The notes: generated by a model not told the origin, from the letters alone. Shown: positions 1 to 18,490, numbered from the stretch's first letter. The stretch: DNA of 64,000 nt from Candidatus Woesearchaeota archaeon (GCA_041665465.1 JBAYIU010000001.1:1406260-1470259); one strand, 5' to 3'. Translations and numbers: made by a program.

Positions 1-495
1 CATGGGTTAGATCGAGTGGAAGAATTGCATCGGATTGAAATGCTTTTTGTCGGAACCAAGGAACAAGTCATAGATTATTGGCAGAAGATTAGGGAAGCGG
101 TCATCAAATTATACGACCAAACTTTAGAAATGGAAATGCGTGTGGCTCGAGTGACTCCATGGTGGATGGCTCATGCCGGGATCAGAACAGATCAAGGAAC
201 AGCAGAAGTTGGAACTTTTGATTTTGATGTTTATCTTCCTTATCGTGGAAATCGTGAACAAGAATGGTTAGAAGTCGGCAACGTCAGTTCTAATGGAGAT
301 AAATATCCTCTTGCTTGGAACGTCAAAGACAAAGCTCAGCAGATTTTATGGAGCGGATGTGCAGGTAGTTCTTTCGAAAGAATGCTCGTTTCTTTCTTAG
401 CTCAGAAAGGTATCGATCCGAAAAACTGGCCTAAAGAAGTCAGAGAAAGATTCGAGCAGAAGATAAAGGGAGTTAAGCCACTTATTTTCTACTAA
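1..495 (+). CDS. C-terminal part of a class II aminoacyl-tRNA synthetase catalytic core (PheRS-alpha/SepRS-like, class IIc); 5' end lies outside the window
   Basis: In-frame open from nt 1 (the track start at 16 is a GTG). Motif-3-like 'SGCAGSSFERMLV' about 35 aa from the C-terminus. 'FDFDVYLPY...EWLEVGNV' resembles the PheRS-alpha region preceding motif 3. Confidence 0.4.
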   Translation, partial: HGLDRVEELHRIEMLFVGTKEQVIDYWQKIREAVIKLYDQTLEMEMRVARVTPWWMAHAGIRTDQGTAEVGTFDFDVYLPYRGNREQEWLEVGNVSSNGDKYPLAWNVKDKAQQILWSGCAGSSFERMLVSFLAQKGIDPKNWPKEVRERFEQKIKGVKPLIFY

Positions 496-631
496 ATTCT
501 TCTTTTTTAGTTATACCTACATTTTCACGAAAAAGCATAAATTTACGGATTTGTAGGTATAACTTTATCTCGTTTAAACCTTATTCTTCACAATAAAATT
601 TAAGAACTTGGATTAAATCTTTCCCTATAAC

Positions 632-1909
632 ATGCTAGATATCAAATTAATCCGGACCACTCCTGAAGTGGTAAGAAAAGACTTACAGAAGCGTAAAGAT
701 GAAGCTAAACTGGACGTCTTAGAACAAACTATCGCTTATGATAAAGAATGGCTCAAAGCTAAGAAAGAGATTGACGACTTAAGAGCTAAACGTAATACTC
801 TCAGTAAAGAGATTTCTGAAACCAAGAAGAAGAATGGTGATGTTTCTAATTTATTAAGAGAGGCAGCAGATATTCCTAAACATATCTCTTTGAAAGAGGA
901 AAGAATAACTTTCTTAGAAGCAGAAATCAAAAAGAATCTGTATAACTTGCCTAATATCTTACATGAGTCCGTTCCTTATGGAGAAGATGATACTCAGAAT
1001 ACTACTGTTAAGCTCTTCGGTAAGAAACCAGAATTTAAGTTTACTTTGAAGAGTCATGCTGACTTGATTGTAGAATTAGGGATGGCAGATTTAGAACGAG
1101 CAGCTAAAATTTCTGGAGCTAGATTCTGGATTCTTAAAGATGAAGGAGCATTGTTAGACTTAGCACTTCAACGATACGCAGTAGATTTCATGATGAAGAA
1201 AGGATATCACTTAATCCTTCCTCCTTACATGATTAAACGTGAACCGTACGAAGGAGTAACTTCTATGGGTGATTTTGCTGACGTCCTTTACAAGATTGAA
1301 GGAGAAGATGAATATCTGATTGCTACTTCTGAACATCCTCTTACTAGTATGTGGATGAACGAAGTGTTAGATGAAAAAGAGTTGCCCATAAAATTGATTG
1401 GCATTTCTCCCTGTTTTAGAAAAGAAGCTGGTGCTCATGGTAAAGATATGAAAGGAATCTTTCGAGGACATCAGTTCCATAAAATTGAACAGATTATTTT
1501 GTGTAAACCTGAAGATTCATGGAAATACCATGAGGAAATGATCCAAAATTCTATTGAATTGTTTGAATCTTTTGATCTGCACTTTAGACAGATTAACATC
1601 TGTACCGGGGATATCGGGATTGTAGCAGCTAAGAAGTATGATCTAGAAGCTTGGATGCCGGTCCAGAACGCTTTCCGAGAAGTAGTCTCTTGTTCAAATT
1701 GTACTGATTATCAATCTCGAAGACTAGACATCCGTTATCGAACACCTGAAGGAAATAAGTTAGTGCACACCTTAAACAGCACGGTAGTAGCTACTTCTCG
1801 AGCCATTGTGGCTTTAGTAGAAAATTTCCAAACCGAGAAAGGAACTATTAAGATTCCTAAAGTGCTTCAACCATACATGAACGGGTTGAAAGAGATTAAG
1901 AAAAGATAA
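632..1909 (+). CDS. serS: Seryl-tRNA synthetase
   Basis: N-terminal coiled-coil tRNA-binding arm. Class II core 'SGARFWILKDEGALLDLAL', 'FRGHQFHKIEQ', and C-terminal motif 3 'LNSTVVATSRAIVALVENFQ'. Confidence 0.93.
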   Translation: MLDIKLIRTTPEVVRKDLQKRKDEAKLDVLEQTIAYDKEWLKAKKEIDDLRAKRNTLSKEISETKKKNGDVSNLLREAADIPKHISLKEERITFLEAEIKKNLYNLPNILHESVPYGEDDTQNTTVKLFGKKPEFKFTLKSHADLIVELGMADLERAAKISGARFWILKDEGALLDLALQRYAVDFMMKKGYHLILPPYMIKREPYEGVTSMGDFADVLYKIEGEDEYLIATSEHPLTSMWMNEVLDEKELPIKLIGISPCFRKEAGAHGKDMKGIFRGHQFHKIEQIILCKPEDSWKYHEEMIQNSIELFESFDLHFRQINICTGDIGIVAAKKYDLEAWMPVQNAFREVVSCSNCTDYQSRRLDIRYRTPEGNKLVHTLNSTVVATSRAIVALVENFQTEKGTIKIPKVLQPYMNGLKEIKKR

Positions 1910-2081
1910 TTTGTTTTGGATTTTATTATTCTTTTTTAGTTCTAGTTTATTTTCTTTTAACTTTTCACTAGTTTCTCTCGTTAATCCTATTAGAACTTTG
2001 CTCTATAAAAGAGAAACGTTTAAAAAGGCCAGAACTTTCTTTTTGATTAAATAATCGGTAATTGAAAAGAGGCAGGTGTAG

Positions 2082-5000
2082 ATGAAGAAAAAGAAGAAGG
2101 TGGTTCGTAAAGTTCATTCTAAGGTACGTTCTAAAGTTGGTACTCAACCCTCTTCTCCTTTCTTAAGTGTTGGTTTACGTGGACTTGCTACTTTATTGGT
2201 AATTTTTGGGATACTTTTTTCATTACAACTTTACTCTTCAGAATCTTCCCTCCTTAAAGAAGGATGGACCTCTTTAAGTCAAGGATTTAATGGTATGGGG
2301 AACCTTCTTACCGGAGCAGCAGTTGGGGTAGAAGAGATGCAAGTCCAAGCGGGAGATTGTGCTGGAGCTTACACTGGCGGAAATTGGACTATTAATTCTT
2401 CTGTTAGTTGTAGTAATGATGTGATTAGTGTAGATGGTTTTGTGATAATTAGAAATGATTCTATCTCTCCTGAATTAGTGGTAAATAATTTCTCTTTAAC
2501 CACTACTGGGGTTTATGACTTAAGAGGTAATTCTACAAATATTGTTCTAGCTGTTCCAGATTTAGATTCATCTACTCCTTCTGCTTATACTAACGATTGG
2601 GATGCTAATTCTGGAAGAGAATTCCGTATTGCTATGAATGAATCCCAGAATAGAATAATGGTTTATGTTAACAATACTGACAACAGTAGTTTCCTTTATG
2701 AATTTGACTTAGATGATAACCCTAGCACCGGCGGGATTGTGGGTGCGGGGGATGATTTTGGGATAGGATATATTGGCGATTTTGGTGGGCCATTAATTGG
2801 ATGTTATAACTCTTCAGATCCGCAAAATAACCTAATTCTCTTATCTTGTGATAATAGTCCTCTTACCTGTGGAAATGTTGATGGCTACGATGGTACTTTC
2901 ATGGGCAACTTTACTGTTTATTGTAACAATTCCGGAAATGCATATGAAGTTGTGATTGATCTGACTAATGCTAGTGATGGGATATGGGAGACTAAACCTG
3001 TTTATGCTTTAGATCCGACAGATCAATCTTCTCCTTTTTATTACACTACTTTCCGGAATAACTCGGTTCTTGATTCGGGGATAAATGCTAGTGGTAATCT
3101 TGTCTTAAATAACGTTACTTTGAATCTTGAAAATAACTTTACTATCTCTGGAGGTAATCTTGATATCCAAAAATCAAATCTTACCTTTAGGCTTACTTCT
3201 AACGGAAGTGCTAATTTTATGATTAGTTCTGGAACTGCTTTTGCTAATATTAATCACAGTGCTTTTACTTCAAATAATTCTATCCTGAGATGGAAAGCGA
3301 GGATCACTGATGGAGATTACAATCTTACCAATAATGTTTTCTCATATGTGGGTTATGATAATGGAGATGGTATTGGTTATAATTACGAAGTTGGTTTTTA
3401 TTTTGCTTCTCCCTTGGGCGGATTAGTCTATAATAATACTTTCTCTAATTGCGGAACCATCGCGGAAGCTAGTTGTGTTTCTTTAGTTGATGGCGACGGG
3501 AATAGTAGAAATACTGGACTAAATTTCAGTTCCAACACCATTTTTAGTGAATCTGCGGGTCTTGGAACCTTTTATCTGTCTGATTATAGTAATACTTCTT
3601 ATACTAGTGGAGTTTTCATAGGGAATAATACTTTTTATGGTAGATTCTCAGTAGGTGGAAGAAACCACATTATCTCTGGGAACTATATAAATAAATCTCT
3701 CTGGTTATCTTCTGTTGAATATAATAATACTTTCATTAATAACGAAGTTAGAACGGAATTGGGGTTTGCTTCAATTAATGAGCAGAATACCTCTTATGGA
3801 TCTAGTATCATAATCTATTCCAATGGATATGGTAAGATGACCTGGAGCGGTAAAGATAACATTCAGATGGGTTTAGTCAGTGTAGATGAAACCTTTGGAT
3901 TAGGAAATTATTTCTATGTAGGGAACAATCTATTGGGTTTAAATGTTGGGAACGGTGCGGGAATAGATTTCTCTGTACTTAACACCACTGCTTCCTTAGA
4001 ATTTTATAGTTTGCTCTGGAATAATAGTGTCCAGTTATGTGTTAATAATAGTGGAACTTTATCTGGGTGTGTAGATTGTAATTCCGGGAATAATTGTACT
4101 TATAGTAATATTACTGGGATTATGTTAGCTAATGTTACTCATTTCAGTAATTATAGTACTAACGGAAGTATTAGTGTAGCAGAATCTCCTGCAGTGACTT
4201 ATCTAACTAACTTCACAGATACCTTTACCGGAACTACAATAAATGCATCAAGATATACTATTACTCAAAGTGGATTAAACGTTTCTCAGAGTGATAAGAT
4301 TATATTTAATGGTTCATATGAGGGTGCAACCTTTTTCACAAATTCATTTGTTGATACAAATCAATCATTTGTTATATCCATTAATGTAGCTAAATTTGAT
4401 CAGACAGAATATGTTGGTATTTTGGAGGACATTGGGCCTTTGGGTGGTGCTCCGGATGACAATGAAGTTGGAATTAGTATTGAAAATGACACCACTCGAA
4501 TTTTAATGTGTAAATTATTAAAAAATGATACTGGATACTTCATAGAAGCTAACGGTTTTACTCATCCCGCAGAAACAATGCAGGTAAACTATACTGAAGG
4601 CCAACTATTTAGCTTGAACTATTCTAATATTGATGGAAGGTATAGTTGTAATTATGCTGGTGAGATGGTTAGCAACACTAATAGTTCTGCTGCAGGGGCA
4701 GATTTTATTACTTTCGATGCTGAAGCAATTTCTCAAATGAATTTACAATTAGATGATTTAAACTTTTATTATGGGACATTAGTGGAAGAAGCTCCTGGAT
4801 CTTCTTATTGTGGTGGTGCTTACACTGGCGGAAATTGGAATATTAACTCTTCCATCAGTTGCAGTAATGAAGCGATTACTGTTAATGGGACTTTGACTGT
4901 TGCTGACAATTCTGTCTCTGCAAATGATGTGACTAACAATTTCACTTCTAATTCTGCTGCTAATTATAACCTTAGGGATAATTCTACAAATATTGTTCTA

Positions 5001-8000
5001 GCTGTTCCAGATTTAGATTCATCTACTCCTTCTGCTTATACTAACGATTGGGACAGTAATTCTAGTCATGAGTTCCGTATTGCGATGAATGAAACTCAGA
5101 ACCGATTAATCATTTTTACTAATAACACTAACAATCTTGATTTTGCTTATTCCCTTAATTTAGATGAGGGTCTTAGTGGAGGAGTCTTTGGTCCTGAATA
5201 TGGAGATGATTTCTTGGTGGGATACTCTGGTGGGCCTGCGATTGGATGTTATAACTCTAGTCTTTTAGACCTCAATGTCTTACCTTGTGATAGTAGTCCA
5301 GTTACTTGTGGAAATGTTTCTGGGTATGATAGTAATTACGATGGTAACTTTACTGTTTATTGTAACAATTCTGGGAATGCTTACGAGATAGTAATCGATC
5401 TAGCCAATACCGGAAACGGATTGTGGAAGAATAAACCCGTTTATGCTCTTGACTTAAACACCAGTGCTTTTTATTATACCACTTTCAGGAACAGTTCCAT
5501 TCTCCCGGTGGTTGCAGTGGGTAATTTAACCTTAAACAATGTTACTCTCAATCTGCAGAATAATCTTACTCTAAGTGGTGGTTATCTTAACATCTATGAT
5601 TCTAATGTGACGATGATGTTGACTGCTAATAATAGTGCAAATATGGATATAAGATCTTCTAATGTGAACTTAAGTGGGACGACTTTCTCTGCTAACAATA
5701 CTAATTTTAAATATATAATAGCAATACAGAACGGAAGTTACGCCAATAATGATTTTTCAGATTTGGCATTGTGGGTTTATCCTGGAACCGGCGGGGTATT
5801 CTCAAATAATGTGGTTTCCAATTGTGGTGGGACTCCAGCGTGTATCATGGCAGCCATAGGTTATAGCAACGGATTTAATTTTACGGGAAATAACATTACT
5901 GCCACTAGTGGTACTGCTTGGGCCACTATGGTTGCGGGAAACAATTACACTTTCAGTAATAATAATATTTATGGTAGCGCTTCACTCTTTTATGGGAATG
6001 TTAGCGTAAGTAATAATTTATTTAATCGTAGTTTATCATCAACAAAGGAGTATGGAATTGATATGATTATCTTTACCAATAATATTATCTTCCCCGGTAT
6101 TAATAGCCAATTGATGGGAGATTGGAACGATACCCTTCCTGACACCTTTATCTATTCAAATAACTATGGCAAGATCACTTGGAACCTTTCTAATTATACT
6201 ACTCCTGAACCTAATCCCAGTTCTTTTGGTTTGGGATATAATTTATACTTAAATAATAACATCGTTGGGGTAAATGCACAATTATCGCTTATTAACTTTA
6301 ATACCACTGCTTCAATTGAGTTTTATGGATTGCCTTGGAATAACAGTGTACAATTATGTAACAACATTAGTGGAACTTTATCTGGGTGTGTAGATTGTAA
6401 TTCCGGGAATAATTGTACTTATAGTAATATTACTGGAATAATGCTAGCTAATGTCACTCATTTCAGCAATTATAGTACTAATGGAAGTACTGGTGTAGCA
6501 GAAGTCGGAGTTAGTTATTGTAGCGGTGCTTACACTGGTGGAAATTGGAATGTTAGTTCTTCTATCAATTGTAGTAATGAGGTTATTCCCGTGAACGGAA
6601 TTATTACTGTTCAAGATCTTTCTGAAACTGCTGTGACCCAATTTGGGGCTTCTACTGGTGGAATTTATGATTTAAGAAATAACTCTACTGGTGTTTTTGA
6701 TACGGATTTAAGTTCTTCTACTCCTTCAGCTTATACTACTGATTGGGATTCTGATTCTAATCGAGTATTTAAGATTGCTATGAATGAATCTTCAGACACG
6801 ATTCAGGTATATGGAAGTTTACCTAACGTTACTGCTTTGTATAGTTTTGATTTAGATAATAATGCTGCTACTGGTACTTCTGTCGGTGGTTCTGGATCAT
6901 CAGGGATGGATCTTACTTTTGGATATCATGCTGATGCTGGTGGAGTGTTGATGGCTTGTTACAACTCTTCTGTGCCTGGTATGTACTTAACTTGGTTTGC
7001 CGCTAGTGGAAGCATTGTTTGTGGTCAAACCATGGATGTCGGGTATGATCGTAATTATACTATCACTTTTAATTCAACTGCCTCTGGAGGAGGGAACACT
7101 TTTGAGTTTATCATTAATTCTACGGGAAGTTGGACCGATAAGAGAGTGGAATTGATGGATGGGGGTAACGCCTATTATTATTATACTAAATTCAAAACAT
7201 CTGGAGCAGTGGCCGGAGGAAGGGGGAATTTAACTCTTAACAATGTTACCTTAACCTTATCTGGAAATCTTACTATTAATGGTATATTAAACGTTAATCG
7301 TTCTTTCTTATACTTTGGAAGTAATAATACTCTTTTCACTTCAAATATCGGAGCTAGCATATTAATCAATAATTCTAATGTTACTTCTAATGGTTCTATC
7401 CGTTATGGAATACGTTCCTTAGGGTCCGACTTTACTTTAGAGAACAGCTACTTGAATGATTTGGGAGCAGTTGTTTCCTCGATGACTTATCCCTTAAAGA
7501 TGGAAGGAACAGGAGGTATGATCAAAAATCTTTCTCTTGGAGCTAACCAAAAGATGTACGGGGTTCAGATTGCTGGATCAGGAATATCTGTCCTTAATAG
7601 TACCTTTTCTGGATCTGCTAACACCATTAATTTATTAGCGGGTAGTTATAATAATATTATCCGGGGGAATAATCTTTCTACTGGGATCAGTTATCTGAAT
7701 GGTGGAAGTTCTTATAACAATCTTATCGCTGAGAATACTATTGCCGGAGTGGGGAATATCTTGATTGGTCAAACTTCTCCAGCTCATTTACCTTATAACA
7801 ACACCTATCTGAATAATAATATTCAGCAGGTTATCACTACTTATGTTGTGAACTATACCAACTATTTCATCTACAATAATTCTTATGGGCAAATAAAATG
7901 GACCAAGAATAATTTCAGTTCTTCTTTTGGAGGAAATGCAGTATTGGTGTTGGACCAGACTGTGTTTGTTAGGTCGAACTTGTTAGGAGTAACCCCCAAT

Positions 8001-11000
8001 ATGTATATGGGGAACTTCAACACTACGGCGGAATTGACTTTTAGAAATCTTCTTTGGAACAATAGTGTACAGTTATGTGAGAATGTTAGTGGAACTTTAT
8101 CTGGATGTGTGGATTGTAACTCTAGTAATAGTTGTACTTATAGTAATATTACTGGGATTATGCTAGCTAATGTTACTCACTTCAGCAATTATAGTACTAA
8201 TGGAAGTATCAGTGTGGCAGGGGGTTTGATTAATAATATCTCTGTAGTGAAATATGCGGTTAATAGTACGGTTAATTGCGATTCAAATGTAACCAGTTAT
8301 GCCCTCTTTATTATTAACGTAACCAATAACAACGCTTACAACCTTACCAACATTATTGTTAATGACACTCCCTTATGTACAAATGGGTTATCCCTTCAAC
8401 AGTCTTTGCCGATATATACTAATTTCTCCTCTTGCAATTATGCTTCTTGGACCATTGCTAATCTTGGACCGGGTGAAACTTATAATATCACTCTAAATTT
8501 TAGTGTCAGCAGTTCTGGCAATTTAACTAACACTGTGCAGGTATGGAATGCAACCAGTCAGTTAGTGAACACTACCGGTAATATCACTGTTACTGGTAGT
8601 TGTGGTGGAGAAAGTCCGGGGTCAAATTTCCTTTCCAACTTTGTAGATACTTTTGATGGAGCGACTATTAATACCAGCGTATATAATGTAACCACTGTTG
8701 GAAACATCAGTATTTCTCAGAATAATAAATTGGTGATTAACGGTTCTAGTGGATATTCATTCGCTGCAACAAATAGCTACGTGAATGTAAGTAATAACTT
8801 TAGTGTTTCAGTAAAAGTAAGTAAGTTTGATAACACTACTTATGGCATTCTAGCAGGAGATCCTTATTCTAACTTTGGTGTGTTTATCAGTAGCTTTTCT
8901 GGCTCGTCTATCTCCTCTAACTTTGTTAGATGTAACATTGCTATGAATTCAAGTGGTTATTTCTTGAATGTTCCTAACCCTGGAAATACTGTTCCTGTAT
9001 CTTATGTTGAAAATGCTACTTTAACTCTGAATTATCATGCCAACAATTATACTTGTGATTGTACTTATGGTGGACAAACTATTTCCTGTGGTAATGAGAG
9101 TCTTCCTTCTACCGACTATTCTATCCTATTGTTCGGTGGCCTCATCTCTGTATCAAATTTACAATTTGATGATCTTAATTTGACGTATAATCCCGTGGCA
9201 GCAGCAGAAACTCCTGCAGGTCCAGGATTAACCATTTATAATAATGGTTTCTTTGAGAACTTTACTTCTTTGAATTCCACATTTTATAACAACACTCTCA
9301 TGATCTTTAGTAATCCTTCTATCATTAATGGGCAGTTGATGATGAATAAAACCACTTTTGAGGGTACTGGTCAAGATTACTTCTACACTACTGTAGATAA
9401 TGTTTCAACCAATAGTTCTTGGAACATTTCTGTTTGGATAAATTTAACTAACACTACTACTAATGCACAAGGAAGTTATTTGATAGAGGCAGGAATCTTG
9501 ATTTATAATAGAACTACCTACAGTAGTTCTTTAGCCTGTGAAGTAGGATATGGTAATGGTATTGGTTTAATATTAGCAAATTATAACAATACTCACAGTT
9601 CAGCACCAACGTATACCTCGGTCTCAAGGAGTTATGGTAACTTAACTTACAGTTACAACAACGCTACTGGAATTTTTAATTGTTCTTTAGATGATGGCAC
9701 TTCTGTTGCTGGATCAACTGGTTCTTTCGGTCCGGGTATGGGTATGGGTGTTGTTTCTCAATTGTCACAAATCGGGGCAGTTGCGCCCAACGGTTCTGTA
9801 ACTGCTTACTTTGATAATTTTAATTATACTTATGCGGTAGCAGCAACTCCTGCTGTGACTTACCTATCCAACTTCACGGATGATTTTGCCGGGACTACTC
9901 TCAATACCTCGAGATACACTCTAGATGTAGGGGGAACTTTGGGAATTGCTCAAAATGAGACCGTGATTGTCAATGGAACCGACACCGGTGCAGACAGTTT
10001 TGCGGGGACTTATACTAATTTGGGGGTTAACACTTCACGTTCATTCTATGTTTCTGTAGGGGTCCTAAACCTTACTAACACCAGCGCTATTACCAGTCCG
10101 AATGGTTACGCAGACGTTAGTCTTTCCTTGACTGATGTTGGTCTTGATTTTCTGAATTTTGCTGTCTGTAAGGTTAGGGTTAAACCGACAGGAATCTATT
10201 TGGAAGATGATAATGTTCAAAGTGTGCCCATATCTGCTACCAACGGTACTTTAGTGCTTTCTTTCAACGCTTCCAACCTGAATTATACCTGTGCTTTTGC
10301 TGGAGATAGTTTAACTAGTGCCAATCTCTCTGGTTTAGGTGGAAATAATAGTTTGGATCTTGTTGCCGAAGCACTTAATACTTCTGTCTGGGCAGAGATA
10401 GATAATCTAGAATTTGCTTATGGGGTTTATTCTGCTCCCGTAGAAACTCCTGCTGTGACTTACCTTTCTAACTTCACTGATAGTTTTACTGGAGTTACTA
10501 TCAACACTAGCAGATATATCTTAGATGAAGGCGGAAACTTATCTATGGCTCAGAATGGTACTTTGGTGGTCAATGGTACTGATAGTGGTTTTGATAGTTG
10601 GGAAGGAGTGTATACTAATTTAGGAGTTAACACTTCAGATTCTTTTTACATTTCAGTTGATGTTAATCTTACTAATACTAGTGCGATTACCAATGCGAGT
10701 GGTGCCACTCGTGCTTATATCTCACTCGCTGATGTGGCAACTGAACTGGATTTTGCGATGTGTGTAATTTACATAAGTCCAGCGGAGGTTGCTTTACAGG
10801 ATGGTGAGGGCGGTGGTCATGCTATGCCTCTATCTATAACCAATGGTACGCTGGTTATGGCTTTCAACGTTTCAAGTATGAATTATAGCTGTCAGTTTGC
10901 TGGACAAAATCTAACTCATGCTAATCTCTCTAGTCCAAGTGGTAATTATAGTTTGTTCTTAGAGTCTGATGCTTTGTATACCTCGACGTGGGCAGAGATG

Positions 11001-14000
11001 GATAACTTAGAGTTTGCCTATGGAGTTTATTCTGCTCCCGTAGCAGAAACTCCTGCTGTGACTTACCTATCCAACTTCAACGATACTTTTGATGGAGCGA
11101 CTATTAATACCAGTAGGTATACTGTTATTTCTGATGGGAATACTACCCTGTCTCAGAATAATAAAGTTATCATTAATGGTACTTCCGGTAGACCCATGAT
11201 GGGGATGAATAGCGCGGTAAACATCAGTAATAATTTCAGTGTTTCAGTCAAAGTAAGTAAATTTGACAATACCACTTATAGTATTATGGGAGCAGATCCT
11301 TATTCTTCTTTTGGGTTGTATATCGGTAACTTTTCTAATTCCAGTTATGATAAAGGCTTTGTTCGATGTAAACTTGCCATGAATTCTAGTGGTTATTTCT
11401 TGAATCATCCTAATTCCGGAAACACTGTTCCTGTCTCTTATGTAGAGAATGGAACTCTTACCTTGACATATTATGCTAATAATTATTCCAATAGTTGTAA
11501 TTATGATGGGAAAAATGTTTCTGGCATTAATGAGAGTTCTTCTTCTGGAGTATATTCTATCATTATGAATGCACAACCCCTTTCTTTAATCAACTTACAA
11601 TTTGATGACCTTAATTTGACGTATAATCCTGTAGCAGCAACTCCTGCTTCTGATAACTCTCCTAATGTTACTCTAGCCAATCCTGAAAATAATTATGTCA
11701 ACGATTCTGCGTCGAGAATTAATATCACTTTTGAATGTGATGCTACTGATGATTATCAACTAGTTAATGTCTCTTTATATTTAACTAATCCTGCTAATGC
11801 TTCTTTTGCTCTGAATCAAACCACCAATGTTGGTGGCACATCTAATTCAACTAGTTGGTTAGTAGAATTAGGTAATGGAAATTATACTTGGGGTTGTCTA
11901 GCATTCGATAATGCTTCTCAGTCCAGTTTCTCTACCCTCAATCACAGTATTCTAATAAACCATACTGTCTCGATATCTGATACCACTTATCCTACTGTAA
12001 CCCTAATCTCTCCTGCAAGCAGTTCTTACACAAACGCTAACAATAGTACCTTACCTTTTGTGTTCGGATACCAAGACAGTAATGATGCTACTGCTAACTG
12101 TACCTTATACCTGAACGGAGTAGCTAGAGGGAATAACGCTAGCACTAGAAACAACACTAACACTAATCTGTATTCTAGTACTACCTTCTCTGAAGGAAGT
12201 AATTCTTGGTACGTTAACTGTACTGATGCCGCTGGAAATACTAACGGAACTTCTACTTGGACTTTCATTGCTGATACTATTAATCCAACTGCTTCAATTA
12301 ATTCCATTAATACTCAGTATAGTGGTCAATGGACCAATACTCAAACTTTAAGTATTAATGCTACTGCTAGCGATGTTAACATTAATTATTGGAACCTTTC
12401 TGTATACAACAGTAATAGTTTAATTACTTCCAATCAGACTTCTGGAAGCAACCTTAATAATCTCGTTACTCTAAGTGTTTCTGCTGATGGAAATTATACT
12501 GTGAATTTAACCGTAACGGATCAAGTTAATAATTCCAACACTTCCACTTTCAATCTTCTAGTTGATACCTTTGCTCCTACTGTTAATTTGACTACTCCTC
12601 CTACAAATGTCTTAGTGTCCTTGGCATCAATAACTTCCACTTTCAATTTCACTGATGCTAGTTCTTCTAGCGCTAATTGCACTTTGTATGTGGGGGGGAT
12701 AGTTAAAGCAACTAACTCCTCTGTACTTAATTACACTAATACTGTGCTTACTGGTAGTTCTCTCTCTGAAGGGAACAATTCTTGGTATGTTAATTGTACT
12801 GATTTAGCAAGCAATACTGGAATCTCTGAAGTAAGAGTTATTCGAGTAGACACTACCACTCCCAGTGTCAGTGGTGCTAGTGTAAACGTAAGTCGAGCTA
12901 AATCTTCTACTTTGGTTGGAATCAATGTTACTGTAACCGATACCAATTTAGCCTGGGTTAAGGCTAATGGGATAAACATGAGTGCCAGTGGAAGCGACAT
13001 GTACAATCTTAGTGCAACTGCCTCTACTTTAGGATGTAGCGAAGGTACTTGTACTATTACTATAATTGCCAATGATTCTGCTAGAAATGCTAATAGTAGC
13101 GTTACTACCAGTTATGTGGTAGATGATACTGCTCCTGCACTGTTCTCTAACTCCACTTCTATCGCTACTGGATCAGTATACAATGCTTCATCTACTTATT
13201 ACTTCAATGTTACTTGGAATGAAACCGGAACCATTTCTAGTCCCTTATTAGAATTTAACAGTGCAAATTATACTATGACTACGGTTGGAAGCGGTGTTTA
13301 TTATTATACTTTTACCGATTTAGCAACTAGTACTTATTCTTACAAATTCATTGCTATAGATGATTCTGGGAATAGTAATGAGACTGCTAGTTATACTTAC
13401 GTTGTAGCTCAGGCAACTCCCTCTATCACCGCTTTACTTAATGGTACAGCTGCTAACCTAAGTGTCGCTTATCCCAATACCGTTAATGCTTCGGGAAGTA
13501 CCGACGCTGGAACCTTAGCTATTTATCGTAACGGGACATCTGTAACTAATGGGGCTGCATCTCTTTTAACTGTTGGATCTTATAGATATGATTTTAACGT
13601 TACTGGAAATCAGAATTATACTAACGCTTCTGCTACCTTGTATGCTACTGTGACTAAAGGTACTCCTGTCCTAACTTATTACTTAAATGGAAATACCACA
13701 AACTTAAGTGTTGTTTATCCTAATACCGTTAATGCTACTGCATCAACTACTGCAGGAACCTTAACCATTTACAGAAATGAAACTAATGTTACTAGTGAGA
13801 ATGGTGCAGCAACTTCTTTAGCTGTTGGATATTATCAATATGATTTCAATATAAGTGGTGGAGAGAATTATACTGATACTTCTACTACTTTGTATGCTAA
13901 TGTAACAATTGGAACTCCAACCTTGTCCCTGTACTTAAACGGAGCAGAAAACAATATGTCTGTAAACTACGGAACTAAAGTAAATGTTACTGGAACAGGT

Positions 14001-15179
14001 TCTGCATCTCAATTAAGTTATACCCTCTATCGTAACAATGTATCTACCCCTAACCCTGAAATTCTTTCCAATCTGTCTTACGGGACCAATTACACTTACC
14101 TCTTTAACACCAGCGGAAATGCCAATTACAGTGCTTCCTCGGTGTCTTACCAATTAGAAGTATTGTTGGGAGCGACTCAAGAATTAACCAATTCAACTGA
14201 TATTACTGTTACTAATACTACTACCGAAATTGTAATTCAGAATTCTAGTTTATCTCAAGTACGACTAAATTCTAGTATCGCTAGTACTACTCAAGTAAAT
14301 CTTTCTTTAGGTTTACTGATGGATCAGTCTACTGGAACTTTCAGTCTAGGAGAAAATAACTTCACCATGACTAGGGAAGTCTCTGGAGTGAACTATACTG
14401 TAGATATCCCGGCTAATACTAACTTGACTGGTGGAAGTGCTTGGGATGGTAAGTTTACTTTGCCCACTTTACCTGCTACTAGCGGATTTACTGCACCTTC
14501 TGGCAGTGTTAATTTAGTGATTGAAGTTGGTTCTACGGTGGAGATTAATCTCTCCGCTCCGGCAAAAATCGTTTTAAATGGAATGTCTGGAAAATCTGCA
14601 GGATGGTCCAGAAGTGGTACTATCACTGAGATAACCACTGTTTGTGATAATGCTACCTTGCCTACCAACATTAATACTACTAGTCCTAGAATCTGTTCTG
14701 TTGATAGTGGTAGTGATCTAATCGTTTGGACTTATCATTTCACTAACTTTGCTGCTTACACTCCCAGCGACGGATCTTCTAGTAGTTCTAGTAGCGGTGG
14801 AGGAAGTAGTAGTAGCAGCAGCACTCCCTCTTCTGCCCCAACAGAATACGCTACCGAGAACCCTGCTCCTAAATTGCCTTCAGTAACTAAAGCACCAACA
14901 GTGACTGCTCCGGTTGAAGTGCCAGTGGAAAATCCCGTTACGACTGTTCCTGAGACTGTTCCGGTTGAAGAGAATAAAGCTTTAGCGGGAATGGCTATCT
15001 CTGATCAACTTCGTTCAATCTTAACCGATTGGAGTAATTTATGGATTGGGTTAGTGGTGGTGGCTTTAATCGTTCTATCTCTATATCCTGTATTTAAGAG
15101 AGTTAAAAATAATCGTAACCGGGAAGAGATGCGAGAAGAATTAAGACAACAAGCGGCTAAGAAAATCAAACAGAAATAA
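2082..15179 (+). CDS. Giant (4365 aa) modular cell-surface protein: N-terminal signal/anchor helix, beta-helix-like Asn-rich repeats, lectin/LamG-like and Ig-like repeat modules, Ser/Thr/Pro-rich stalk, C-terminal TM helix with a basic cytoplasmic tail; saturated with N-x-S/T sequons (putative heavily N-glycosylated S-layer/adhesin-like protein)
   Basis: Single 13,098-nt ORF in AT-rich DNA (stop codons would be frequent by chance). AGGTG RBS 4 nt upstream. N-terminal 'LATLLVIFGILFSLQLY' helix. C-terminal 'SSSSSSSGGGSSSSSS...PTVTAPVEVPVENPVTTVPETVPV' stalk, then 'LWIGLVVVALIVLSLYPVF' and 'KRVKNNRNREEMREELRQQAAKKIKQK'. Modules recur 3-6 times. Confidence 0.88.
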   Translation: MKKKKKVVRKVHSKVRSKVGTQPSSPFLSVGLRGLATLLVIFGILFSLQLYSSESSLLKEGWTSLSQGFNGMGNLLTGAAVGVEEMQVQAGDCAGAYTGGNWTINSSVSCSNDVISVDGFVIIRNDSISPELVVNNFSLTTTGVYDLRGNSTNIVLAVPDLDSSTPSAYTNDWDANSGREFRIAMNESQNRIMVYVNNTDNSSFLYEFDLDDNPSTGGIVGAGDDFGIGYIGDFGGPLIGCYNSSDPQNNLILLSCDNSPLTCGNVDGYDGTFMGNFTVYCNNSGNAYEVVIDLTNASDGIWETKPVYALDPTDQSSPFYYTTFRNNSVLDSGINASGNLVLNNVTLNLENNFTISGGNLDIQKSNLTFRLTSNGSANFMISSGTAFANINHSAFTSNNSILRWKARITDGDYNLTNNVFSYVGYDNGDGIGYNYEVGFYFASPLGGLVYNNTFSNCGTIAEASCVSLVDGDGNSRNTGLNFSSNTIFSESAGLGTFYLSDYSNTSYTSGVFIGNNTFYGRFSVGGRNHIISGNYINKSLWLSSVEYNNTFINNEVRTELGFASINEQNTSYGSSIIIYSNGYGKMTWSGKDNIQMGLVSVDETFGLGNYFYVGNNLLGLNVGNGAGIDFSVLNTTASLEFYSLLWNNSVQLCVNNSGTLSGCVDCNSGNNCTYSNITGIMLANVTHFSNYSTNGSISVAESPAVTYLTNFTDTFTGTTINASRYTITQSGLNVSQSDKIIFNGSYEGATFFTNSFVDTNQSFVISINVAKFDQTEYVGILEDIGPLGGAPDDNEVGISIENDTTRILMCKLLKNDTGYFIEANGFTHPAETMQVNYTEGQLFSLNYSNIDGRYSCNYAGEMVSNTNSSAAGADFITFDAEAISQMNLQLDDLNFYYGTLVEEAPGSSYCGGAYTGGNWNINSSISCSNEAITVNGTLTVADNSVSANDVTNNFTSNSAANYNLRDNSTNIVLAVPDLDSSTPSAYTNDWDSNSSHEFRIAMNETQNRLIIFTNNTNNLDFAYSLNLDEGLSGGVFGPEYGDDFLVGYSGGPAIGCYNSSLLDLNVLPCDSSPVTCGNVSGYDSNYDGNFTVYCNNSGNAYEIVIDLANTGNGLWKNKPVYALDLNTSAFYYTTFRNSSILPVVAVGNLTLNNVTLNLQNNLTLSGGYLNIYDSNVTMMLTANNSANMDIRSSNVNLSGTTFSANNTNFKYIIAIQNGSYANNDFSDLALWVYPGTGGVFSNNVVSNCGGTPACIMAAIGYSNGFNFTGNNITATSGTAWATMVAGNNYTFSNNNIYGSASLFYGNVSVSNNLFNRSLSSTKEYGIDMIIFTNNIIFPGINSQLMGDWNDTLPDTFIYSNNYGKITWNLSNYTTPEPNPSSFGLGYNLYLNNNIVGVNAQLSLINFNTTASIEFYGLPWNNSVQLCNNISGTLSGCVDCNSGNNCTYSNITGIMLANVTHFSNYSTNGSTGVAEVGVSYCSGAYTGGNWNVSSSINCSNEVIPVNGIITVQDLSETAVTQFGASTGGIYDLRNNSTGVFDTDLSSSTPSAYTTDWDSDSNRVFKIAMNESSDTIQVYGSLPNVTALYSFDLDNNAATGTSVGGSGSSGMDLTFGYHADAGGVLMACYNSSVPGMYLTWFAASGSIVCGQTMDVGYDRNYTITFNSTASGGGNTFEFIINSTGSWTDKRVELMDGGNAYYYYTKFKTSGAVAGGRGNLTLNNVTLTLSGNLTINGILNVNRSFLYFGSNNTLFTSNIGASILINNSNVTSNGSIRYGIRSLGSDFTLENSYLNDLGAVVSSMTYPLKMEGTGGMIKNLSLGANQKMYGVQIAGSGISVLNSTFSGSANTINLLAGSYNNIIRGNNLSTGISYLNGGSSYNNLIAENTIAGVGNILIGQTSPAHLPYNNTYLNNNIQQVITTYVVNYTNYFIYNNSYGQIKWTKNNFSSSFGGNAVLVLDQTVFVRSNLLGVTPNMYMGNFNTTAELTFRNLLWNNSVQLCENVSGTLSGCVDCNSSNSCTYSNITGIMLANVTHFSNYSTNGSISVAGGLINNISVVKYAVNSTVNCDSNVTSYALFIINVTNNNAYNLTNIIVNDTPLCTNGLSLQQSLPIYTNFSSCNYASWTIANLGPGETYNITLNFSVSSSGNLTNTVQVWNATSQLVNTTGNITVTGSCGGESPGSNFLSNFVDTFDGATINTSVYNVTTVGNISISQNNKLVINGSSGYSFAATNSYVNVSNNFSVSVKVSKFDNTTYGILAGDPYSNFGVFISSFSGSSISSNFVRCNIAMNSSGYFLNVPNPGNTVPVSYVENATLTLNYHANNYTCDCTYGGQTISCGNESLPSTDYSILLFGGLISVSNLQFDDLNLTYNPVAAAETPAGPGLTIYNNGFFENFTSLNSTFYNNTLMIFSNPSIINGQLMMNKTTFEGTGQDYFYTTVDNVSTNSSWNISVWINLTNTTTNAQGSYLIEAGILIYNRTTYSSSLACEVGYGNGIGLILANYNNTHSSAPTYTSVSRSYGNLTYSYNNATGIFNCSLDDGTSVAGSTGSFGPGMGMGVVSQLSQIGAVAPNGSVTAYFDNFNYTYAVAATPAVTYLSNFTDDFAGTTLNTSRYTLDVGGTLGIAQNETVIVNGTDTGADSFAGTYTNLGVNTSRSFYVSVGVLNLTNTSAITSPNGYADVSLSLTDVGLDFLNFAVCKVRVKPTGIYLEDDNVQSVPISATNGTLVLSFNASNLNYTCAFAGDSLTSANLSGLGGNNSLDLVAEALNTSVWAEIDNLEFAYGVYSAPVETPAVTYLSNFTDSFTGVTINTSRYILDEGGNLSMAQNGTLVVNGTDSGFDSWEGVYTNLGVNTSDSFYISVDVNLTNTSAITNASGATRAYISLADVATELDFAMCVIYISPAEVALQDGEGGGHAMPLSITNGTLVMAFNVSSMNYSCQFAGQNLTHANLSSPSGNYSLFLESDALYTSTWAEMDNLEFAYGVYSAPVAETPAVTYLSNFNDTFDGATINTSRYTVISDGNTTLSQNNKVIINGTSGRPMMGMNSAVNISNNFSVSVKVSKFDNTTYSIMGADPYSSFGLYIGNFSNSSYDKGFVRCKLAMNSSGYFLNHPNSGNTVPVSYVENGTLTLTYYANNYSNSCNYDGKNVSGINESSSSGVYSIIMNAQPLSLINLQFDDLNLTYNPVAATPASDNSPNVTLANPENNYVNDSASRINITFECDATDDYQLVNVSLYLTNPANASFALNQTTNVGGTSNSTSWLVELGNGNYTWGCLAFDNASQSSFSTLNHSILINHTVSISDTTYPTVTLISPASSSYTNANNSTLPFVFGYQDSNDATANCTLYLNGVARGNNASTRNNTNTNLYSSTTFSEGSNSWYVNCTDAAGNTNGTSTWTFIADTINPTASINSINTQYSGQWTNTQTLSINATASDVNINYWNLSVYNSNSLITSNQTSGSNLNNLVTLSVSADGNYTVNLTVTDQVNNSNTSTFNLLVDTFAPTVNLTTPPTNVLVSLASITSTFNFTDASSSSANCTLYVGGIVKATNSSVLNYTNTVLTGSSLSEGNNSWYVNCTDLASNTGISEVRVIRVDTTTPSVSGASVNVSRAKSSTLVGINVTVTDTNLAWVKANGINMSASGSDMYNLSATASTLGCSEGTCTITIIANDSARNANSSVTTSYVVDDTAPALFSNSTSIATGSVYNASSTYYFNVTWNETGTISSPLLEFNSANYTMTTVGSGVYYYTFTDLATSTYSYKFIAIDDSGNSNETASYTYVVAQATPSITALLNGTAANLSVAYPNTVNASGSTDAGTLAIYRNGTSVTNGAASLLTVGSYRYDFNVTGNQNYTNASATLYATVTKGTPVLTYYLNGNTTNLSVVYPNTVNATASTTAGTLTIYRNETNVTSENGAATSLAVGYYQYDFNISGGENYTDTSTTLYANVTIGTPTLSLYLNGAENNMSVNYGTKVNVTGTGSASQLSYTLYRNNVSTPNPEILSNLSYGTNYTYLFNTSGNANYSASSVSYQLEVLLGATQELTNSTDITVTNTTTEIVIQNSSLSQVRLNSSIASTTQVNLSLGLLMDQSTGTFSLGENNFTMTREVSGVNYTVDIPANTNLTGGSAWDGKFTLPTLPATSGFTAPSGSVNLVIEVGSTVEINLSAPAKIVLNGMSGKSAGWSRSGTITEITTVCDNATLPTNINTTSPRICSVDSGSDLIVWTYHFTNFAAYTPSDGSSSSSSSGGGSSSSSSTPSSAPTEYATENPAPKLPSVTKAPTVTAPVEVPVENPVTTVPETVPVEENKALAGMAISDQLRSILTDWSNLWIGLVVVALIVLSLYPVFKRVKNNRNREEMREELRQQAAKKIKQK
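2529..2602 (+). repeat. 74-nt segment of the giant gene identical to 4980..5053 (codes LAVPDLDSSTPSAYTNDWD)
   Basis: Both copies read directly; perfect nucleotide identity. Confidence 0.85.
4015..4169 (+). repeat. About 155-nt near-identical intragenic module (WNNSVQLC..SGTLSGCVDCNSGNNCTYSNITGIMLANVTHFSNYSTNGS), copy 1 of 3; other copies about 6335..6489 and 8055..8216
   Basis: Near-identical nucleotide strings at three positions in the giant ORF. Confidence 0.8.
4980..5053 (+). repeat. Second copy of the 74-nt identical intragenic repeat (see 2529..2602)
   Basis: Direct comparison of the two segments. Confidence 0.85.
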
Positions 15180-15182
15180 TGT

Positions 15183-16910
15183 TTATATCTTTTTAATCAT
15201 GTAAGGTCCTTCTAAGCGATACCCTAACTTTCTGTAATAATTACGAACACCTATTCCGGAAATAATTACCATTCTAGTCTTAGAATATTTTCTAGCTATC
15301 TCTTCTGCTGTTTTCATCAACTTTTTACCCCATCCTCGATGTTGGACGGTTCCTTCTTCTCCGATAGCGGTAGCTGTGCCATACACATGTAATTCTCTGA
15401 TTAATGCAGAATTCTTAGTAATCTCTTTTCTTAACAAAGTTGAAGGGAAACGCATTCTGATAAATCCAATTAGTAAATCATTCTTGATGTCTTCTGCAGA
15501 AATGAAGAACTCTTCTCCTTGAGAGGCATCATATTCATTTACTTTAATCTTAATATCTTTCCACGAAATCTTATGTCCTTTTGGTTCTCGGCAACGGATA
15601 CAACGACAATTTACAGGATAGGTCTGATGCAGATATTGACGTAGATTGGTCATCTTTACTCCCGCTACGATCTGGGTGGAAGGAATGTCTCGCTGGATGC
15701 GCATGATTCTACAATATTCCGGAACGTACTTCTTAAACTTAAAGATCATCTCTGCTGCATCTTCTGCAACTAATGGTTTAAACTTCCCTTGTTGATATTC
15801 CTTATATAATTTGGTTCCTTTAGCTACCATGCATGGATATATCTTCAACATATCAGGACGATAGTTTTGGTCAGAGAATAGTCTAATCATCCCTTTAAGA
15901 TCTTCCTCTTTACTTAATCCAGGAAGTCCAGGCATATAATGTCCTGCAACTTTAAATCCGAGATCTTTCAATATTTGGATAGATTGTTGAGTCTGTAAGG
16001 TGGTATGTCCGCGTTGAATCCGCTGAAGAGTCTTATCATATACACTTTGTATCCCTAACTCTACTCTGGTACAACCCAGACGAAGCATTTCATTGCCTTG
16101 AATTAATAGTCCATAATCCGGGCGAGTCTCAATACATAAAGCCACTGCTTTGATGGTTGAAGTCTCGTTTCTCTTTTGTTCTTTGATCAAAGAAGAACGT
16201 CCTTTCAGAGCTAACATCTTTTTCTTTACTCTTTTAATCCTGGTTGTATCATTAGGCGGTGCAGGAAGTTCAAAGAACTGTTTGAATTTAAGATAATTTA
16301 ATTCTCCTCGATAATAAAATTGTTGAGAGAAATCGTTCATGGCCTTGAATGCAAATTTAATAAACTTTTCTTGATATGGTTTAGGAAAACTTGGAAAGGT
16401 TCCACCCATAACTATCAGTTCTACTTTTTCGCAGTTGTGTCCCAACAAAATGTATTGTTCTAATCGGTTCATCACTTGCAGGTATGGATCATAATCATTA
16501 TGGATTCCGCGCATGGTAGCGGGTTCAGTTCCGGTATAGGATTGAGGAACGTTGCCGAAAGCACTTTTTACTCCTCCTGGACACATGATACATTTTCCGT
16601 GAGGACAAGGGAAAGGTTGGGTCATAATAGCGACGGGAGCTACTCCGGAAAGACTTCTTACTGGTTTACTTAGCAAGAAAGGTCTTAGTTTTACTGCTTC
16701 TTGTTTATTAGCATGTAGAAGAATCTGGATATTAGTGGGCACTTCTTTTAAATTATATTTTCTGGATAGGTCTCTCTTAATCTGATCGAACTCTTTTAGA
16801 GATAGGTTTCTTCTAAGTAGGATCTTAAGTAGTTCGGGGTAAAATTCAGACATGAGTAGTAGAAAAGATAGTTTGAATAAAAGGTTTTCTGTGGTTAGAC
16901 AAAATTTCAT
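15183..16910 (-). CDS. elp3: Elongator Elp3 homolog (radical SAM plus GNAT acetyltransferase; tRNA wobble-uridine modification)
   Basis: 'CPHGKCIMCPGG...SYTGTEPATMRGIHNDYDPY' matches the Elp3 radical-SAM region. C-terminal GNAT 'QHRGWGKKLMKTAEEIA'. True start may be the internal Met (MSEFYPELL, 16853). Converges with the giant gene, stop to stop 3 nt apart. Confidence 0.9.
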   Translation of the reverse strand: MKFCLTTENLLFKLSFLLLMSEFYPELLKILLRRNLSLKEFDQIKRDLSRKYNLKEVPTNIQILLHANKQEAVKLRPFLLSKPVRSLSGVAPVAIMTQPFPCPHGKCIMCPGGVKSAFGNVPQSYTGTEPATMRGIHNDYDPYLQVMNRLEQYILLGHNCEKVELIVMGGTFPSFPKPYQEKFIKFAFKAMNDFSQQFYYRGELNYLKFKQFFELPAPPNDTTRIKRVKKKMLALKGRSSLIKEQKRNETSTIKAVALCIETRPDYGLLIQGNEMLRLGCTRVELGIQSVYDKTLQRIQRGHTTLQTQQSIQILKDLGFKVAGHYMPGLPGLSKEEDLKGMIRLFSDQNYRPDMLKIYPCMVAKGTKLYKEYQQGKFKPLVAEDAAEMIFKFKKYVPEYCRIMRIQRDIPSTQIVAGVKMTNLRQYLHQTYPVNCRCIRCREPKGHKISWKDIKIKVNEYDASQGEEFFISAEDIKNDLLIGFIRMRFPSTLLRKEITKNSALIRELHVYGTATAIGEEGTVQHRGWGKKLMKTAEEIARKYSKTRMVIISGIGVRNYYRKLGYRLEGPYMIKKI

Positions 16911-16939
16911 AAATTTTTATAAAAAAGAGCCTCTTAAAT

Positions 16940-17635
16940 ATGCTTATGGATAAGGTTTATTATATTGAAGATTACTTTATGTCTGGTATTATCTCTTTCT
17001 TAAAGGGACAAGGGTTTGCTAAAATTAATTTTGTTCCTTTGAACATTCCTTCTGATCCAAGAGAAGCTTTCGGGAAGAAAGTCAATTTTGCCATAGAGGA
17101 AGAATCTGCAGTATTGATTTGGGGAGACGGTTCTTTTCATCAGGCTAGTTATTATTTTAGTCCTTCGCAACCGTATTGTAAATCGGTTGATGATGCTCAT
17201 CATGATTTTAAAGAATGTTATGAAAGTATTTCTTGTGCTAGTCATAATTTGGCCTTAATCAGAAATGATCCTCTTTTACAGGAATTAGAATTGTTAGGAG
17301 TAACTGAGGAAGATTCTCAACTTAATTCTTCTTCAAAAGTGAGGATTTGTTCCAGCTTAGGTTCAAACTTTTCTCGCAGATTAGTCCATAAGAGTATAGA
17401 TTTAGATGTGATTTTTGGGTATCCTTGTTCAGAAAGTTATGCTTCAGGAAGGTTTACTTTTCCAGCAGTAATGAGTGCGTTTGAAGAAATTCTTAGAAAT
17501 AATGACCTTAGTCGGTTAGATCTGGGTGGGTTAAGTAAATATGCTAAGGATAGTTTAATTCCTTTAATTCATAAGGGTTATGGGATGAGGGAATATCGAG
17601 ACCTGCTTACCTTATTTTTCGACTATCGTCATTAG
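16940..17635 (+). CDS. Arginase/agmatinase (ureohydrolase)-fold protein, short and with altered metal-binding motifs
   Basis: 'LIWGDGSFHQ' (compare GGDHS), 'SVDDAHHD' (DAHxD), 'SIDLDVIFGYP' (SxDxDxxDP). Only 231 aa. Confidence 0.4.
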   Translation: MLMDKVYYIEDYFMSGIISFLKGQGFAKINFVPLNIPSDPREAFGKKVNFAIEEESAVLIWGDGSFHQASYYFSPSQPYCKSVDDAHHDFKECYESISCASHNLALIRNDPLLQELELLGVTEEDSQLNSSSKVRICSSLGSNFSRRLVHKSIDLDVIFGYPCSESYASGRFTFPAVMSAFEEILRNNDLSRLDLGGLSKYAKDSLIPLIHKGYGMREYRDLLTLFFDYRH

Positions 17636-17694
17636 TGCTGGGTATTCAAACCATACCGTAATATTTATAAATAAACTGTGGAATTAAAGTTAAC

Positions 17695-17988: not shown

Positions 17989-17994
17989 ATTCAT

Positions 17995-18345: not shown

Positions 18346-18490
18346 GAAAAATGAAAAAACATTTTTCAATTATAAATAAAGGTAAAATACTTTATTTAAA
18401 ATAAGAAAAAGGGGGAAAAGGTATTCTATAGCTAAATATAGGTTTAGAAAGCGCAATTTTTATTAATCCCAACAGAATACTTATCTATAT

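Follow-up and report, generated by a model that had tools for sequence, protein, structure and literature searches.

The 64,000-nt stretch of a Candidatus Woesearchaeota archaeon contig analysed here in full (GCA_041665465.1, JBAYIU010000001.1:1406260-1470259; hereafter the window) contains, at positions 2082–15179 of the plus strand, a giant open reading frame (ORF) of 13,098 nt that encodes a 4,365-amino acid (aa) protein, a predicted N-glycosylated surface adhesin with a C-terminal anchor. Below we show that this gene contains anciently diverged copies of a large module which nevertheless share short, nearly or perfectly identical DNA tracts, and we argue that these tracts were probably homogenised by intragenic gene conversion. 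By exact look-up, the product corresponds to MFA6462209.1 of NCBI, a hypothetical protein from a Candidatus Woesearchaeota metagenome-assembled genome, and two contigs, one of 1.56 Mb and the 352-kb ENA contig k141_218193, are on record as encoding the identical 4,365-aa product; the 90% cluster to which the protein belongs is represented by a C-terminal fragment (P0152). The giant ORF matches no Pfam family above the cutoff and no NCBIfam family.

Chunked self-BLAST combined with hidden Markov model (HMM) domain matches reveals three A modules of ~570–610 aa and six L-type-lectin modules, arranged in the order N-terminal hydrophobic segment, A1, L1, A2, A3, a small domain, L2–L6, immunoglobulin (Ig)-like repeats, a Ser/Pro/Thr-rich linker, and a C-terminal transmembrane helix with a basic tail. 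Module A1 (2355–4187, aa 92–702) consists of an N-terminal beta-sandwich, a putatively beta-helix-like middle and a Cys-rich C-end, as delineated by self-BLAST, HMM and an AlphaFold2 model. It is followed by L1 (4188–4796, aa 703–905), which adopts a predicted L-type (legume-lectin or ConA-like) fold according to HMM, AlphaFold2 and Foldseek, and then by A2 (4806–6506, aa 909–1475; self-BLAST and HMM), which belongs to the same subtype as A1. Module A3 (6516–8225, aa 1479–2048) is the orthologue of the single A module present in the two closest genomes, and the lectin-like modules L2–L6 (8616–11672, aa 2179–3197; HMM matches) are diverged paralogues. The transmembrane anchor, LWIGLVVVALIVLSLYPVF in the translation, is encoded at 15039–15095, precedes the basic tail and is retained in the orthologue P0007. 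All these features lie on the plus strand.

The repeats were delineated by exact-repeat enumeration and a repeat finder, both run over the whole window, which is AT-rich (~36% GC). The longest exact direct repeats of the window are a run of 75 nt (2528–2602 and 4979–5053) shared by A1 and A2 and a second run of 69 nt (4049–4117 and 6368–6436), with the next longest reaching 32 nt. The 75-nt repeat encodes NSTNIVLAVPDLDSSTPSAYTNDWD, a conserved loop motif, and is a candidate gene-conversion tract with a sharp 5' edge: the codons immediately before it differ even synonymously (TTA/CTT, AGA/AGG). The surrounding 300-nt pair (2356–2655 and 4807–5106) is 77% identical. The 69-nt run belongs to a three-copy family, D1 (3979–4184, 6298–6503 and 8017–8222, the latter two 88% and 81% identical to the first copy), with a probably homogenised core of 165 nt at the C-end of each A module: 4017–4181 in A1 and 6336–6500 in A2, which hold the two copies of the exact run, and 8055–8219 in A3. 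The pairwise nucleotide identity of the core is 0.90 for A1–A2, 0.88 for A1–A3 and 0.87 for A2–A3.

In addition, each A module starts with the motif C-x-G-A-Y-T-G-G-N-W, encoded by a 30-mer that recurs at 2358–2387, 4809–4838 and 6519–6548 with 2, 0 and 3 mismatches, respectively (0/100 shuffles matched). The similarity of these copies is mainly protein conservation because the motif is kept in the protein family across genomes. An earlier note, made from the sequence alone, had reported a 74-nt identical stretch starting at 2529, a module of about 155 nt in three copies, and a motif recurring at about 2353, 4808 and 6520. The exact stretch extends by one base, to 75 nt from 2528, the three-copy module is family D1 with its 165-nt core, and the recurring motif is the 30-mer; thus, all the sequence statements of that note were right to within a few bases.

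An exhaustive profile search over 1.84 billion cluster representatives retrieved only 154 with an A module at E<=1e-3, about 30 of these containing a complete one; the A module is an undescribed family. In a word-based search with A2 as the query, a single partial relative was recovered. The closest genomes are L009 (GCA_964734485.1), in which the locus is syntenic through ELP3, L21e, Rpb4 and DUF655, and L010 (JGI 3300013137). The orthologous genes of these genomes encode proteins of 2,476 aa and 2,266 aa, respectively, each with one A module. Housekeeping proteins are ~70–80% identical between the window genome and the related genomes, and synonymous sites are saturated at this distance.

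Outside the shared tracts, the three A modules of the giant gene are diverged. In codon-aligned comparisons of whole modules, the identity is 55% aa and 63% nt for A1–A2, 43% and 52% for A1–A3, and 41% and 54% for A2–A3, and it is distributed unevenly along A1–A2, the N-domain being 64% identical at the aa level, the middle 37% and the C-end 87%. In the diverged parts, identical residues are encoded by the same codon in a fraction of 0.40–0.55 of the cases, compared to 0.45–0.47 expected from the codon usage of the gene; for the middle of A1–A2, the count is 45/94 (0.48, with 0.46 expected), and the Nei-Gojobori proportion of synonymous differences (pS) in middle segments is 0.68–0.73. The A modules are therefore old paralogues, with synonymous sites saturated outside the patches. 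The earlier note had described them as recently duplicated or homogenised. Drift plus chance does not account for the patches, and for these short tracts homogenisation is a better fit than recent duplication.

The middle segments also establish which of the three modules is the resident one. There, A3 is 64–65% identical at the aa level to the A module of L009 and 44% identical to that of L010 but only 22–27% identical to A1 and A2, and the single A modules of L009 and L010 are themselves only 23–30% identical to A1 and A2. Being closest to the single modules of the relatives in this segment, A3 is the resident orthologue. By the same comparison, the A1-L1-A2 block is extra material of a different, ancient subtype.

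In the C-end, this relationship is reversed. We examined the 68-codon block that starts at 3978 in A1, 6297 in A2 and 8016 in A3 and classified informative sites by whether they follow the paralogue pattern (A1=A2=A3 vs L009=L010) or the orthologue pattern (A3=L009=L010 vs A1=A2). Between 3978 and 4016, there are 6 orthologue-pattern and 0 paralogue-pattern sites, whereas between 4017 and 4181 there are 7 paralogue-pattern and 2 orthologue-pattern sites. The switch from orthology to paralogy is located at ~4017 (Fisher p=0.007), with the pattern changing between 4005 and 4024, and coincides with the start of the 155-nt module of the earlier note. Over the 39 nt upstream of the tract, the nucleotide identity of A3 is 0.51 and 0.46 to A1 and A2, as opposed to 0.77 and 0.69 to the orthologues, whereas within the tract (4017–4181 in A1 coordinates) it is 0.88 and 0.87 to A1 and A2 and 0.76 to each of the orthologues. 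The same holds at the protein level, where the C-end of A3 shares 84% of its residues with that of A1 and 80% with that of A2, compared to 76–77% for the orthologues, so that different topologies are recovered from the middle segment and from the C-end. Within the tract, the pairings are clustered (A1=A2 at 4049–4117; A1=A3 at 4118, 4121 and 4136; A2=A3 at 4125, 4148 and 4163), which, from a small number of sites, suggests more than one conversion event.

Synonymous sites provide further evidence on the patches. A1 and A2 have identical residues at 303 degenerate codons; the longest run of same codons among these is 23 (permutation p=0.001), and the best 25-codon window includes 24 matches (p=0.005). 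Given the same residues and the codon usage of the gene, the probability that all codons are identical is 1.8e-9 for the 75-nt run and 1.1e-8 for the 69-nt run. Likewise, the same codon is used at 73/90 positions inside the patches versus 114/213 elsewhere for A1–A2 (Fisher p=5e-6) and at 57/81 versus 68/149 for A1–A3 (p=3e-4); for A2–A3, the corresponding comparison yields p=0.11.

From the identity of the tracts, the synonymous saturation elsewhere, and the flip between orthology and paralogy at the breakpoint near 4017, we infer that the patches are likely to be the product of short-tract intragenic gene conversion seeded in conserved motifs. Under this scenario, non-reciprocal homologous recombination would have copied tracts of ~70–170 nt between anciently diverged modules at two sites. 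One would be the loop motif of the N-domain, with exchange between A1 and A2 (75 nt, perfect), and the other the Cys-rich C-end, where all three modules would have been affected over 165 nt and A1 and A2 again, more recently, over the 69-nt sub-tract. Purifying selection on the protein would preserve DNA homology at the places where conversion starts, and conversion, in turn, would reinforce this homology.

Several observations weigh against this interpretation, and some of them bear on the alternative that purifying selection on conserved motifs, together with AT-rich codon bias, produced the patches without any recombination. Both patches fall on the most conserved motifs of the family, with invariant D, L, T, P, Y, T, D, W and D residues and the Cys-rich C-end motif (...NCTYSN.TG...ANVTHFSNYSTNGS) conserved family-wide. 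Orthologues and cross-genome pairs are already 72–78% identical at the nucleotide level in the 165-nt tract; hence much of the identity of this tract is plain protein conservation, and the excess identity of A3 amounts to only ~10 points. The premise of the earlier note that nucleotide identity must be recent is, accordingly, too strong, since protein constraint and codon bias suffice to keep the orthologues at this level. Furthermore, the synonymous-run tests that involve A3 are not significant (p=0.18 for A1–A3 and p=0.51 for A2–A3), the breakpoint test counts only 15 informative sites, and over the whole 70-codon C-end the pS of A1–A2 is 0.39, not far below some cross-genome values (0.47–0.54). 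A crude GENECONV-like scan of A1, A2 and A3 placed the best A1–A2 fragment at 2908–2932 and not in the 75-nt tract, partly because gapped columns were dropped and also because A3 is too diverged; it was replaced by the synonymous-codon run tests and the site-pattern breakpoint test with orthologues. Finally, two related proteins from other lineages, P0003 and P0004, each have A modules with C-ends that resemble one another (85% and 73% aa identity, respectively) but are encoded by near-random codons; given this likeness without synonymous identity, protein-level co-adaptation could contribute. In the respective loci (L014, 3001–13020, for P0003; L015, 3001–18686, for P0004), the C-end likeness suggests either older homogenisation or such co-adaptation.

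Nevertheless, we consider selection without recombination an unlikely account. Codon usage alone gives probabilities of ~1e-9 and 1e-8 for the two perfect runs, cross-genome exact runs in the same motifs reach only 20–21 nt, and the longest intragenic exact repeats of the related genes do not exceed 30 nt (20 nt in L009, 19 in L010, 20 in L003, 30 in P0003 and 20 in P0004). More generally, cross-genome exact runs are at most 29 nt, except for a run of 44 nt in a lectin module that is orthologous between the window and L009. Constraint also does not predict the flip at 4017, and for A1–A2, purifying selection alone is already disfavoured. Somewhat less probable still is the possibility that A1 and A2 are recent duplicates, with the perfect tracts surviving as remnants while the rest diverged rapidly under diversifying selection. 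These two modules are indeed mutually closest in the N-domain (64% aa, pS 0.50) and are absent from both closest genomes. However, in the middle segment, their synonymous sites are as saturated as those between genomes (45/94 same codons, pS 0.68), and their protein identity of 37% is no higher than that between A1 and the module of a viral protein described below (also 37%). Rapid protein evolution leaves synonymous identity intact, and the heterogeneity along the A1–A2 alignment speaks against such an origin as well. That the repeats are a product of assembly, with chimeras caused by repeats or with a module number altered by collapse or expansion, is highly improbable, even though the window matches a short-read, MEGAHIT-style contig (k141_218193) and a second, independent assembly of this population is interrupted at 10101, among the L4/L5 repeats. 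At 75 nt, the longest exact repeat falls short of k=141, overall identity between the modules is only 52–63%, the 13-kb ORF is intact with an identical product on the 352-kb and 1.56-Mb contigs, and positions 10101–18560 are reproduced at 99.988% in another sample. Least probable of all, and hardly credible, is conservation of the identical tracts as nucleic-acid elements, for example as an RNA structure or as a regulatory site inside the gene. The antisense strand of 4049–4117 does fold better than shuffled sequences (z=-2.6; 2/200 shuffles as good), but this fold is one of four tested and probably due to chance, folding of the sense strand is unremarkable (z=+0.7 to +0.95), Rfam yields no match, and in the same stretch many synonymous sites are different in the third copy and in the orthologues. 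Across genomes, it is not the nucleotide sequence in preference to the protein sequence that is conserved.

The number of modules differs among the relatives. There are 3 A modules in the window gene, 1 in L009, 1 in L010, 2 in L003, 3 in P0003 and 2 in P0004, and L modules number 6 in the window gene, 4 in L009, 2 in L010 and 3 in L003. The module architecture is therefore fluid between lineages, and the comparison of related genomes that the earlier note had proposed as a check on varying module number did turn up different counts, for example, three A modules here against one in L009 or L010. A change in copy number is mechanistically possible because the repeat spacings (2451, 2319, 1719 and 4038 nt) are all divisible by 3: a crossover at the 75-nt repeat is predicted to leave an intact ORF of 3,548 aa, and one at the 69-nt repeat an intact ORF of 3,592 aa. 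The difference in module number is observed between related genomes; ongoing recombination and surface variation within the population, as suggested by the earlier note, are no more than a possibility.

The earlier note had also cautioned that copy number could be mis-assembled, a hazard that turns out to be small, given that the exact repeats are no longer than 75 nt, less than the k-mer length of 141 to which the contig name k141_ points, and that the modules are 52–63% identical. The independent JGI contig L011, from the same population, covers 10101–18560, differing at a single position among 8,460 nt. The end of this contig lies exactly at 10101, inside L4 (aa ~2674), in the L4/L5 repeat region, which shows fragmentation and not collapse; the repeats appear to break up some short-read assemblies. 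For annotation and assembly practice, patches of this kind pose no danger to an assembly at k=141.

The L modules have evolved differently. Module L2 is 77% identical (aa) to its L009 orthologue, L009_Ld, compared to 65% to its paralogue L6; for L4, L5 and L009_La, every pairwise identity is 62%. Concerted evolution of the L repeats was considered and rejected because L2 is nearer to its orthologue than to its paralogue. At the nucleotide level, L2 (8616–9230) is 80% identical to L009 13748–14365, with 116/155 identical codons and exact runs of up to 44 nt, as against 195/386 same codons for ELP3 between the window genome and L009 (Fisher p=1.7e-7 for the contrast). This likeness might reflect module exchange between lineages or an unusual local constraint.

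The genes that surround the giant ORF are archaeal and include those for seryl-tRNA synthetase, ELP3, a fused PriS-PriL primase, PolX and a Ski2-like helicase. The primase is encoded by a single 491-aa ORF (33108–34583, minus strand) that matches both the small and the large DNA primase subunits. Directly upstream of the orthologue of the giant gene, L009 (4610–9892) and L010 (4215–9863) contain a second giant surface gene, which encodes a protein of 1,760 aa or 1,882 aa, respectively, Cys-rich with Ig-like domains and of another family; the window has the seryl-tRNA synthetase gene in this place. The idea that the window gene is a fusion of the two tandem giant genes of the relatives was rejected because the upstream genes represent another family, which lacks A modules. 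Scanning the window in all six frames detected no A or L modules outside the giant ORF, and the window is without silent donor cassettes of the vls or pilE/pilS type, as would be used in programmed antigenic or phase variation. Among the other members of the A-module family, P0003 also has DUF285 repeats between its A modules, and L005 (Ga0233431_1004105) encodes tandem paralogues (463–4689 and 4900–7464) with one A module each, diverged in the middles but with near-identical ends (54 and 34 nt exact at the 5' end and 55 and 34 nt exact at the 3' end) that encode the signal and anchor regions, a further instance of mosaic identity among these proteins.

With respect to function, the giant protein contains 277 N-X-S/T sequons, i.e., 6.3 per 100 aa compared to 0.5–0.7 in the cytoplasmic neighbours. 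Such a sequon content is expected of an archaeal N-glycosylated surface protein. The L modules match no Pfam or NCBIfam lectin family. Nevertheless, the AlphaFold2 model of L1 (predicted local distance difference test score, pLDDT, 81; predicted template modelling score, pTM, 0.82) retrieves 194 PDB structures at E<=1e-3 in a Foldseek search, with SraP (4m00) ranked first (E=5e-7) and YwfG, the CBM2 of the phage J-1 Dit protein, legume lectins and the Methanocaldococcus jannaschii lectin (7elv) among the other top matches. The A1 model is all-beta (pLDDT 78.7). Its best partial matches are tailspikes (4ru4, 4xop), AlgE4 (2pyg) and a GH87 enzyme (7c7d), but these beta-helix matches are weak and none is significant (E=0.07–0.16, probability 0.3–0.85, template modelling score 0.2–0.3), and Ig-like sandwiches were matched as well. 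Taken together, these features make a modular, glycan-binding adhesin the most plausible identity of the giant protein.

The closest known relative of the A1/A2 subtype is P0013, a protein of 1,448 aa that is 48–51% identical (aa) in the N-domain and 30–37% in the middle and contains an N-terminal transmembrane segment, one A module and two lectin-like modules. It is encoded at positions 10001–14347 of L012, part of a 90.7-kb contig (k141_1704855) from the same ENA assembly, ERZ27249449; an identical copy (L013) is found in JGI 3300037810. The region 1–24347 of L012 encodes a large terminase (phrog_38, E=9e-26) only 25% identical to those of known phages, a collagen-like tail fibre, a tape-measure protein and a weak portal match, so that the contig is tailed-virus-like; it represents a putative Woesearchaeota virus. 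Its lengths in the two assemblies, 90,700 and 90,686 bp, suggest a complete genome. A Pfam search of ten further ORFs of the contig was uninformative, and no A module was found in GenBank phages or IMG/VR.

The first lectin module of P0013 is, in addition, the closest known relative of L5 (71% aa, 74% nt, with 62% aa for both L4–L5 and L5–L009_La). A1 and A2 group with the viral module in the N-domain and the middle but not in the C-end, where P0013 is only 48–49% identical (aa) to them, compared to the 80–84% between these two modules and A3. This low identity fits the possibility that the C-ends of A1 and A2 were overwritten by the resident A3 type, with fast divergence of the viral protein as an alternative. 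We tentatively propose, as a conjecture that we consider more doubtful than probable, that the A and lectin-like modules form a recombining pool shared by the woesearchaeal adhesin and a structural or surface protein of an infecting tailed virus. In that case, exchange with the virus would have brought the A1-L1-A2 block and L5 into the host gene or carried them out of it, and newly arrived modules would be joined to the resident C-end by intragenic conversion. If so, the gene would be a recombination-driven specificity cassette among the virus, the DPANN cell and the partner of the DPANN cell.

The process that we propose for the A modules is by no means novel: it is the well-known ectopic or intragenic gene conversion in modular surface proteins, and it is the protein family that is uncharacterised. 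Ectopic and intragenic recombination has been described among the paralogous cell-surface adhesins encoded by yeast FLO genes (PMC3512402), and homogenisation of intragenic repeats in very long structural genes, the spidroins (PMC3933166, PMC3563967). As in those cases, repeated coding modules would exchange by homologous recombination, giving patches of identity and chimeric modules. Unlike those cases, the modules described here are 1.7–1.8 kb in length, old and only 52–63% identical in nucleotide sequence, homogenisation is confined to tracts of 70–170 nt, and the host is an archaeon. The low overall identity and the confinement of identity to short tracts also set them apart from the head-to-tail units of Rib/alpha-C or Aap/SasG, which are >90% identical over their whole length.

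By analogy with the tandem-repeat adhesins SraP and Aap of Gram-positive bacteria, the giant protein is predicted to be a long, anchored, modular, glycan-binding surface protein, and its L modules share a legume-lectin-like fold with SraP (PDB 4m00), YwfG and Aap (PDB 8g1l; Foldseek E from 5e-7 to 2e-5). It differs from SraP and Aap in the lack of sequence homology detectable with Pfam, the combination of six diverged lectin modules with three putatively beta-helix-like A modules, the archaeal C-terminal transmembrane anchor, the many N-glycosylation sequons, and repeats that are not near-identical over their full length. Among archaea, nanohaloarchaeal SPEARE giant proteins combine serine-protease and adhesion domains with restriction-endonuclease domains; in the present protein, Pfam detects neither protease nor nuclease domains. 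Giant surface proteins of DPANN archaea, as well as ConA/LamG proteins of viruses of DPANN and of the Candidate Phyla Radiation (CPR), have been reported (PMC11310336, PMC10266531, PMC6142677). The protein analysed here resembles the former as a very large predicted surface protein of an ultrasmall archaeon, with homologous modules on a virus contig from the same sample. Given that ConA/LamG genes have already been reported in DPANN viruses (PMC11310336), the sharing of modules with a virus is a specific new case and not a new principle.

The analysis defines a new module family, the A module, and ties it to a putative virus of Woesearchaeota, for which few host links exist. It also yields concrete predicted in-frame recombinants of the giant gene, namely those encoding 3,548 and 3,592 aa. 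Above all, it illustrates how a giant surface protein of a DPANN archaeon evolves, with old, predicted glycan-binding modules that are gained, lost and reshuffled between lineages and, probably through gene conversion, locally homogenised at their ends.

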